DNA from: Escherichia coli O157:H7
Lineage (GTDB): Bacteria > Pseudomonadota > Gammaproteobacteria > Enterobacterales > Enterobacteriaceae
NCBI RefSeq assembly: GCF_013167455.1
Contig: NZ_CP038328.1
Strand: one strand, 5' to 3'
Length of the DNA: 64,000 bases
Each line of letters opens with the position of its first letter. Position 1 is the stretch's first letter. Made by a program: the position numbers. This document shows, piece by piece, positions 33,201-36,200 of the stretch.

Positions 33201-36200
33201 TCCGGCGAAAACCGGCAACATTTTTGTGCTCGATCGTCGTAATGGCGAACTGGTGGTTCCGGCACCGGAAAAACCGGTTCCCCAAGGTGCTGCCAAAGGC
33301 GATTACGTTACCCCTACTCAACCATTCTCGGAACTGAGCTTCCGTCCGACGAAAGATTTGAGCGGTGCGGATATGTGGGGAGCCACCATGTTTGACCAAC
33401 TGGTGTGCCGCGTGATGTTCCACCAGATGCGCTATGAAGGCATTTTCACGCCGCCATCTGAACAGGGCACGCTGGTCTTCCCGGGTAACCTGGGAATGTT
33501 TGAATGGGGCGGGATTTCCGTTGATCCAAATCGTGAAGTGGCAATTGCCAACCCAATGGCACTGCCGTTTGTTTCGAAACTGATCCCACGCGGTCCGGGT
33601 AACCCGATGGAGCAGCCGAAAGATGCCAAAGGCACGGGTACGGAATCCGGCATTCAGCCACAGTACGGTGTACCGTATGGTGTCACGCTCAACCCGTTCC
33701 TCTCACCATTTGGTCTGCCATGTAAACAGCCAGCATGGGGTTATATCTCGGCGCTGGATCTGAAAACTAATGAAGTGGTGTGGAAGAAACGTATTGGTAC
33801 GCCGCAGGACAGTATGCCGTTCCCGATGCCTGTACCGGTGCCGTTCAATATGGGTATGCCGATGCTGGGCGGGCCAATCTCCACGGCGGGTAACGTGCTG
33901 TTTATCGCCGCTACGGCAGATAACTACCTGCGCGCTTACAACATGAGCAACGGTGAAAAACTGTGGCAGGGTCGTTTACCAGCGGGTGGTCAGGCGACGC
34001 CAATGACCTATGAAGTGAATGGTAAGCAGTATGTGGTGATCTCCGCAGGCGGTCACGGTTCATTTGGTACGAAGATGGGTGACTATATTGTGGCTTATGC
34101 GCTGCCGGATGATGTGAAGTAAGACTTGCTCAGATTGCTGACAACGTGCGCGTTGTTCATGCCGGATGCGGCGTGAACGCCTTATCCAGCCTACAAAATT
34201 GTGCAAAATCAATGGATTGCACAGGTAACGTAGGCCTGATAAGCGTAGCGCATCAGGCAGATTTGCGTTTGTCATCAGTTTAATGCCCGGAGAGATCCGG
34301 GCATATTCCCGAATACGGTCTTTTTATACCGTAAACCCTAACATCATCCCCGTATCTTCATGCTCCAGCAGATGGCAGTGCGCCATATAAGCACGTTCTT
34401 TCGGTGCGTCGTGATTAAACTTCACCAGCACTTCACTGACATTGCCTTCTACCTTAACGGTATCTTTCCAGCCCGCGCGATGAGCCGCTGGCGGTTTGCC
34501 ATTTTCTGACAAGATACGGAACTGCGTGCCGTGAATATGGAACGGATGCAGCATCATGTCGCCCACGCCAGAGATAACCCAACGTTCGTACTGCCCTTTC
34601 GCCGCCGCAAACATCGGCTTATTCATATCAAACGCCTGACCGTTGATTTTATTGGCATGGTGGAAATCGAACTTCCCGCCGTGGTTCATATGATTCATAT
34701 TGCCGTGCCCCATATGGCCCATCATCTGGCTGTGATCCATTCCGGCCATCGCCTGATCGCCATATTTCTCCATTAGCATCTGCATCCCCATCATATCGAG
34801 CATCGGGTCCATAGAAAGTTGCAGCTTGCGTACCGTCAGCCCTTCCAGCGAAGGTAACGCAGGCAGGCTACTTAATGTGTCTGGCAAAGCACCGGAAGCA
34901 CTAATAGCAATCGGCTGAATCCGCATTACCGGATGAGGCTTATCAAACGGCGCAATCGCCATCCCCATCTGGCTGACCGGCAGCGTCACCAGGTCAAAGG
35001 GTTTGTTGTCGTTAACCTCCACCAGCACTTCAAAACGCTCGCCCATCAGCACCGGCAGCTCGTTCACCTTCACCGGTTCAGGTAGCAGACCACCGTCGCT
35101 GGCAATCACATAAAGCGGGCGATTGTCGCTGGTGGCGAAATTGAGCGAGCGGGCATTACAGCCATTGAGCAAACGCAGGCGCAGCCAACCACGCGGGGCA
35201 GCGTGTTGCGGGTAGATTGCACCGTTGGTCAGCAACGTATCGCCAAACCAGCCCACGGCGGCGGTCATCACATCCAGTTGATAATCAATCTGCCCGTCGG
35301 CGCTAAATTTCTTATCCTGAACGATCACCGGAACATCATCGATACCCCACTGTTTTGGCAGCATTAATTTCAGGATCTCGTCATCTTCAATCACCACCAG
35401 ACCAGCCAGCCCCATCGCCACCTGTCGCCCGGTCTTGCCATGTTGATGTGGATGGAACCAGCAGGTAGCGGCAGGTTGATCAACGTTCAACGTCACCGAG
35501 CGCTTGCCACCTGGCGGAATAATTCCCTGTGGGCCGCCGTCGACTTCACCCGGTACTTCCAGCCCGTGCCAGTGCAACGTCGTCTCTTCCGTCAGTTGGT
35601 TATAGATATCAACCGTTACCGCTTTGCCGCGCTGTAATTTCACCGCCGGCCCCAGCAGATTGCCGTTATAGCCCCAGGTAGTTGCAGTTTTCTCGCCAAA
35701 GGTAGACTGACCTGCGCCAATAGTTAACTGAATGCGATTACGGGCATCGGTCGTGAGCAAATCAGGGATCGGTAACGTTGGGCGTTCCGCCGCAAAGACT
35801 GCACGGCTCCACAGTGGCAAGGCTGAAGCCACACCCAGTGCGACGGAATATTTCAAGAAATCACGACGTTGCATAGTTATTTCCTTATTCTTAAGCAGGC
35901 GAAACAAAATCAAACGTTGAGCATAGTCCTTCCCCTTACGGGAAGGTCAAGCCGCAGACACAATTTAATCGACAATAATGGTCGTCGCCTCGCTCGCAGT
36001 GTGCTAACGTTTATCTTCTTTAAGCCCCTGGTAGAAGCAATGAAGACGTTTTTCAGAACAGTGTTATTCGGCAGCCTGATGGCCGTTTGCGCAAACAGTT
36101 ACGCGCTCAGTGAGTCTGAAGCCGAAGATATGGCCGATTTAACGGCAGTTTTTGTCTTTCTGAAGAACGATTGTGGTTACCAGAACTTACCTAACGGGCA

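Follow-up and report, generated by a model that had tools for sequence, protein, structure and literature searches.

A CueR operator in the 19-bp spacer of the cueO promoter of Escherichia coli O157:H7

The stretch of DNA analyzed here, called the window throughout, comprises 64,000 nucleotides of contig NZ_CP038328.1 of Escherichia coli O157:H7 (assembly GCF_013167455.1). Our subject is the intergenic region between cueO and yacC, and within it an inverted repeat at 35928-35946, which is almost certainly the operator of the MerR-family regulator CueR, placed in the spacer of a sigma-70 promoter for cueO. The local gene order is gcd, cueO, yacC, speE, speD, yacL, acnB, and several chromosomes of E. 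coli O157:H7 match the window at 100% identity, both over 1.1 kb around the site and over the 25 kb of 22000-46999. The cueO gene lies on the minus strand (34324..35874) and encodes a multicopper oxidase of 516 amino acids with a twin-arginine signal peptide (MQRRDFLK...). Its product scores 982.6 bits against the NCBIfam equivalog model NF008205 (cut-off 525), the gene is annotated cueO in the 100%-identical genomes, and it has a role in copper homeostasis. The divergent yacC gene on the plus strand (36040..36387) encodes a pilotin-like lipoprotein of 115 amino acids, which scores 196.8 bits against the equivalog model NF037975 (cut-off 80). The segment 35875-36039 is the entire 165-bp region between the two genes.

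On the plus strand, positions 35928-35946 read CCTTCCCCTTACGGGAAGG, a perfect dyad and the sole exact match in the 64 kb. No exact match occurred in 100 dinucleotide-preserving shuffles of the window; when up to two mismatches were allowed, the window itself contained four extra sites, scattered and unrelated, against 1.64 expected. Read on the minus strand, that is in the direction of cueO, the element is a CCTTCC-N7-GGAAGG inverted repeat centred at 35937, identified as a CueR operator by its sequence, its likeness to the copA promoter (PcopA) and its agreement with the published core site (PMC8169799). The true arms are 7 bp long (CCTTCCC at 35946-35940 and GGGAAGG at 35934-35928), separated by N5, with one additional inner T-A pair.

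The dyad is embedded in the cueO promoter (PcueO), which we read from the minus strand as a -35 hexamer TTGACC (35945..35950), identical in letters and register to that of PcopA, and a -10 hexamer TATGCT (35920..35925), with a counted spacer of 19 bp (35926..35944). The pair of hexamers lies 46 nt upstream of the cueO ATG (35874-35872). The region between them and the gene (35875..35919) would hold the discriminator and a short cueO 5' leader, as judged from the position of the -10 hexamer, with a Shine-Dalgarno sequence AAGGA at 35886-35882; transcription probably starts near 35913. The cueO-strand sequence of the region contains cTTGACCTTCCCGTAAGGGGAAGGACTATGCTc. A scan of both strands of 35700-36200 for consensus sigma-70 promoters with spacers of 16-18 bp found no promoter. 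As the PcueO hexamers match 9 of the 12 consensus positions, it is the spacer length alone that hides the promoter from such a scan.

The initial annotation of this DNA, made from the sequence alone, had described a perfect ccttcc-N7-ggaagg dyad between the -35 element and the -10 element of a promoter with a 19-bp, over-long spacer. The dyad and the spacer are there as described. "Between", however, is not strictly correct, since the first two bases of the operator (CC) are also the last two of the -35 hexamer. Likewise, the coordinates given for the operator, 35875-36039, do contain it but span the whole intergenic region, of which the operator takes up only 19 bp.

The same annotation had suggested a comparison with the copA promoter of the same genome, for which we used the O157:H7 chromosome NZ_AP018488.1, identical to the window. 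There the copA promoter reads TTGACCTTCCCCTTGCTGGAAGGTTTAACCT, and when PcueO is set against PcopA of both O157 and K-12, CTTGACCTTCCC...GGAAGG aligns in identical positions. Like PcueO, PcopA has the -35 hexamer TTGACC, the half-sites CCTTCC and GGAAGG separated by N7, the 2-bp overlap with the -35 hexamer and the 19-bp spacer. The two promoters differ in the central 7 bp (CGTAAGG in PcueO versus CCTTGCT in PcopA), which makes the cueO palindrome the longer one (7+1 paired positions versus 6 at copA), and in the -10 hexamer (TATGCT versus TAACCT). Outside the core, their flanking DNA is unrelated.

The absence of a cueR gene would have spoken against the operator, but the gene is encoded in NZ_AP018488.1 (L003:28400-28807). 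Its product scores 308 bits against NF007590 (cut-off 244) and 206.6 bits against TIGR02044 (cut-off 147.4), and stays below the cut-offs of the ZntR, MerR, CadR and SoxR models. It is identical to K-12 CueR at 134 of 135 positions, including C112 and C120; the sole change, D103N, is outside the N-terminal DNA-binding part and away from the metal cysteines Cys112/Cys120. The K-12 copA-glsA-ybaT-cueR region finds a match in 5424 of 5426 complete E. coli genomes, with at least 80% of its length covered in 5416. Solved structures show CueR by itself, bound to DNA and within RNA polymerase activation complexes (1Q05, 4WLS, 4WLW, 6LDI, 7C17, 6XH7).

The surroundings of cueR differ between the two lineages. 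In O157:H7 (L003:3149-28807, NZ_AP018488.1), an island of about 25 kb separates ybaT from cueR. It contains a TolC-family gene with a frameshift, a pseudogene for a siiEA-like giant adhesin and genes of type I secretion, and the cueR ATG overlaps the stop codon of an HlyD-family gene (ATGA). In K-12 (L002:6870-6993), the island is missing, and about 95 bp from the 3' end of the HlyD gene remain upstream of cueR as a deletion scar. Instead of following ybaT directly, cueR in O157:H7 closes a type I secretion island. As O157:H7 has the island and K-12 only the scar, the wiring of cueR transcription may differ between the lineages.

Since 2000, the cueO operator of CueR has been a known element, and it is a textbook example of MerR-type activation by DNA distortion. 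The study by Outten and colleagues from that year reportedly included footprints and primer extension. For CueR occupancy, copper induction and the distortion mechanism, we rely on the literature and not on this analysis. K-12 PcueO has been placed under CueR control (Outten et al., 2000; Yamamoto & Ishihama, 2005; both as cited in PMC8169799), and the targets of CueR have been given as copA and cueO, with the core site CCTTCC-N7-GGAAGG in a promoter with a 19-bp spacer (PMC8169799). According to cryo-electron microscopy of activation complexes, the CueR dimer bends and undertwists the spacer and contacts the non-conserved region of sigma-70; the distance from -35 to -10 is 55.4 Å in the CueR complex and 55.0 Å in a 17-bp promoter (PMC8169799). 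The claim of a MerR-family CueR operator acting by DNA distortion agrees with these data. Chromatin immunoprecipitation on microarrays (ChIP-chip) with tagged CueR gave two peaks and no more on the E. coli chromosome, one upstream of copA and one upstream of cueO, and a PcueO-lux reporter tracked copper induction (bioRxiv 10.1101/2020.08.17.251918), in line with the copper regulation that had been expected for cueO. Another study uses PcueO-lacZ to report on CueR and treats the loss of -74 to -1 upstream of cueO as removal of the CueR site (PMC9396075); in window coordinates, this deletion covers 35948-35875 and takes out the operator as mapped here. The cueO promoter is also named among CueR operator sites (PMC4507017), and comparative genomics lists the site under "yacC-yacK divergon" (PMC1526738). 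A literature search on post-transcriptional control of cueO by small RNAs gave nothing relevant.

The intergenic region has no mismatch to K-12 MG1655 over its 165 bp, so the K-12 experiments apply base for base, while cueO and yacC each differ by 2.3%. The K-12 cueO promoter, also known as the yacK promoter, is the same element, with no difference within the element itself. A 164-bp intergenic query is also 100% identical in K-12 and BL21 derivatives, and at least 99% identical in 5366 of 5431 E. coli records. By comparison, that level is reached in only 480 of 5373 records by a neighbouring 164-bp piece of the cueO coding sequence, directly behind the part for the signal peptide (35700-35863), with 2375 records at 90-95%, and in 2302 of 5424 records by 164 bp of yacC coding DNA (36100-36263). 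The invariance of the intergenic region next to polymorphic genes argues that the non-coding region is more constrained than the genes it controls. The 5' end of cueO is unusually polymorphic for a core gene that adjoins an invariant promoter.

Some copies of cueO have left the chromosome. Ten true plasmids of 96-273 kb, from E. coli and E. fergusonii of pig, pork and human sources, carry the gene, and one of them is named for blaCTX-M-55. The matches to these plasmids all end at the same point, equivalent to window position 35923/35924. In plasmid NZ_CP154402.1 (64828-72875), a gcd fragment and cueO lie between two copies of the IS10-like insertion sequence (IS) ISVsa5. At the junction (locus 4048/4049), the end of the IS abuts the TGCT of the -10 hexamer, and the -35 hexamer, the CueR operator and the "TA" of the -10 hexamer are gone. 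As the IS10-like element has cut the operator away, plasmid cueO is uncoupled from CueR; it may be driven from an outward promoter of the IS.

Beyond E. coli, a scan for TTGACCTTCC-N7-GGAAGG through about 100,000 species genomes gave at least 120 loci with at least 124 matches; one fully palindromic site was counted on both strands among the 124 listed matches, to which all of the following counts refer. Within 800 nt on the same strand, the first homologue was a CopA-type ATPase for 53 matches, a CueR-like MerR protein for 21 and a multicopper oxidase for 9, with 2 more that had a multicopper oxidase further downstream. For 39 matches, none of the three classes was found, but 9 of these had less than 1 kb of downstream sequence. 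The hexamer exactly 19 bp after the -35 hexamer, whose positions lay outside the search pattern, has A2 in 118, T1 in 80 and T6 in 83 of the 124 matches. "TA" occurs 77 times at the 19-bp offset, compared with 0-20 times at offsets shifted by 1-2 bp. A -10 signature at exactly 19 bp across the listed matches implies that a fixed 19-bp design characterizes the class as a whole.

Orthologues of cueO follow the motif by 60-110 nt in five species among the listed loci (Escherichia albertii, 97% amino acid identity; Citrobacter werkmanii, 82%; Yersinia artesiana, 64%; Pantoea sp., 62%; Rahnella bruchi, 64%). In an alignment of these loci, the promoter core stands out as a conserved island in diverged flanking DNA. 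Outside the search pattern, the loci share a C ahead of TTGACC, the third C/G in both arms and TAnGCT; TTGACC itself is invariant in the five species, as the pattern required it. The -10 hexamer is TAnGCT or TATCCT in four of the species and GATGCT in Pantoea.

HmrR/CueR-type promoters of alpha- and beta-proteobacteria and Clostridia have the same TTGACCTTCC-N7-GGAAGG with a -10 hexamer at 19 bp, and precede copA-type ATPases, MerR-family genes and multicopper oxidases. Unlike the single-gene cueO target, they usually belong to copA-cueR operons or to autoregulated regulator genes; among the matches listed, cueO as a separate single-gene target facing yacC is confined to Enterobacterales. Metagenome-assembled genomes (MAGs) of Clostridia/Firmicutes, among them gut Clostridia such as Faecalibacterium, Lachnospiraceae and Oscillospiraceae, carry exact copies of the motif with a good -10 hexamer at 19 bp, about 55-120 nt upstream of MerR-family genes whose products are CueR-like (28-45% identity; loci L008, L014, L020, L023, L047, L049, L053, L064, L073, L083, L085, L097, L102 and L124). 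As the motif occurs in both Clostridia and proteobacteria, the operator half-sites are common to very distant phyla. In a Hyphobacterium sp. MAG (L117 2278-2304), the site is the fully symmetric TTGACCTTCCAGTAACTGGAAGGTCAA, with TTGACC on each strand and a CopA homologue on one side. It is possibly a bidirectional variant of the design, but its -10 hexamers at 19 bp are poor (AAGGTG).

Nothing contradicts the assignment of the dyad to CueR; several points limit it. A palindrome with 12 specified bases is by itself expected about 0.3 times by chance per 5.5 Mb; it is the placement of the dyad that makes it significant nevertheless. Conservation at the pattern positions holds by construction and proves nothing, because the loci were retrieved with the motif itself, and the independent evidence is confined to positions outside the pattern and to which genes lie downstream. 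The counts from the scan are lower bounds, so that absence from them carries no meaning. The cueO start near 35913 is deduced from the position of the -10 hexamer. Finally, the structural mechanism was solved on PcopA and not on PcueO, and we carry it over because the architecture of the two promoters is identical.

Among the alternatives, only co-regulation of yacC retains some life, and not much of it. As a palindrome between two divergent genes, the dyad could serve both directions when bound by CueR and regulate yacC as well as cueO. All six species examined keep the divergon, the intergenic region varies unusually little over its full length among about 5,400 E. coli genomes, although both flanking genes are polymorphic, and the listing as "yacC-yacK divergon" names both genes (PMC1526738). 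Nevertheless, we consider such a shared role improbable. Towards yacC, the dyad offers TAGTCC and, 19 bp on, AAGCCG, with no TAnnnT and hence no usable -10 hexamer, and on inspection of these hexamers we rejected a MerR-type promoter in this direction. Furthermore, yacC is not listed as copper- or CueR-regulated in either PMC8169799 or 10.1101/2020.08.17.251918.

The yacC gene has a better candidate of its own, an extended -10 element TGcTAACGT on the plus strand (36002..36010), about 30 nt upstream of the yacC ATG (36040). The form TGnTAACGT is kept in six of six aligned yacC-cueO divergons (E. coli, E. albertii, Citrobacter, Yersinia, Pantoea and Rahnella) amid diverging DNA and probably represents the yacC promoter. 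Between it and the cueO -35 hexamer lie 50 to 95 nt, depending on the species, which argues for two independent modules, with TGnTAACGT not part of the CueR switch. It is also doubtful, and to the same degree as a shared operator, that the bending induced by CueR tunes the TGnTAACGT promoter. If yacC did respond, the pilotin-like lipoprotein YacC would be an unrecognized member of the copper regulon. A CpxR-like repeat in the yacC leader, TTAAA-N4-ATAAA, was dropped on account of its wrong spacing.

A second alternative accepts the operator but assigns it mainly to another MerR-family protein, such as ZntR, SoxR or a GolS-like gold sensor. To our knowledge, E. coli has no GolS-like paralogue, although the genome was not searched for one. 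Operators of the MerR family do share a dyad in a spacer of 19-20 bp, and CueR and its Salmonella paralogue have similar sites (PMC1526738). However, the half-sites agree letter for letter with the CueR core site and with PcopA, the regulator of this genome passes the CueR cut-offs and fails those of ZntR, MerR, CadR and SoxR, and the cueO peak was obtained with tagged CueR (10.1101/2020.08.17.251918). Half-site identity, model scores and ChIP data together led us to exclude another paralogue, which is very unlikely to be the principal user of the site.

The remaining alternatives are weaker still. The chance expectation given above would leave room for a palindrome without regulatory role, with cueO driven by another promoter, but the empty shuffles, the identical -35 hexamer, register and 19-bp spacer at copA, the lack of a canonical 16-18 bp promoter in the region, the retention of the dyad upstream of cueO in five other species and the ChIP-chip placement of CueR upstream of cueO (10.1101/2020.08.17.251918) make this extremely improbable, and we excluded it on the shuffles and the context. 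An RNA hairpin, as terminator or leader structure in place of a DNA operator, has an equally negligible probability: the G+C-rich 7-bp inverted repeat could form a stem-loop if transcribed, but it lies upstream of both divergent genes and of the likely cueO start and is expected in neither mRNA, no T-run follows it, a terminator scan of 35700-36200 finds none, and no Rfam family reaches the gathering threshold in or near the region, so that position, terminator scan and Rfam scan exclude it.

Elsewhere in the window, three Rfam matches reach the gathering threshold: tp2 (103 bits, 49826-49939, plus strand), naRNA4/CssrE (76 bits, 61214-61291, minus strand) and STnc40 (76 bits, 61694-61763, minus strand). 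They are ordinary enterobacterial annotations of small RNAs and REP-type elements.

The CueR operator of cueO is supported by our analysis, but it is an element already known, and finding it again has no discovery value. It does serve as a positive control for the reading of raw sequence, which named the right gene and strand and was correct on dyad, spacer length and regulator; all the checks that it suggested turned out as it had predicted. The invariant intergenic region beside a polymorphic cueO 5' end, the conserved element on the yacC side and the plasmid copies of cueO that have lost the operator are modest leads. The design also has well-known relatives. MerR at Pmer of Tn21/Tn501 and ZntR at PzntA likewise use a dyad in an over-long spacer of 19-20 bp, with a regulator that stays bound in either state and activates by bending and undertwisting, but they differ from CueR at PcueO in their half-sites, metals and regulator orthologues (PMC1526738, PMC9909328, PMC8169799).

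Together, these considerations make it almost certain that the established model of a copper switch holds for PcueO. Its hexamers are good, but with 19 bp between them they would be too widely spaced and wrongly phased for RNA polymerase, which would leave basal transcription poor. CueR, a MerR-family dimer and sensor of Cu(I), Ag(I) and Au(I), would occupy the dyad with or without metal, on the face of the DNA opposite the polymerase, and without metal it would keep the DNA in a repressed shape. Binding of Cu(I) in the loop of Cys112 and Cys120 would lead the dimer to kink and undertwist the spacer. This distortion would bring the distance from -35 to -10 close to that of a 17-bp promoter and the hexamers into phase, so that the sigma-70 holoenzyme could open the promoter, assisted by contact of CueR with the non-conserved region of sigma-70. 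The outcome would be a periplasmic cuprous oxidase, CueO, that is induced by copper and shares its regulation with the exporter CopA, whose operator has the same design.

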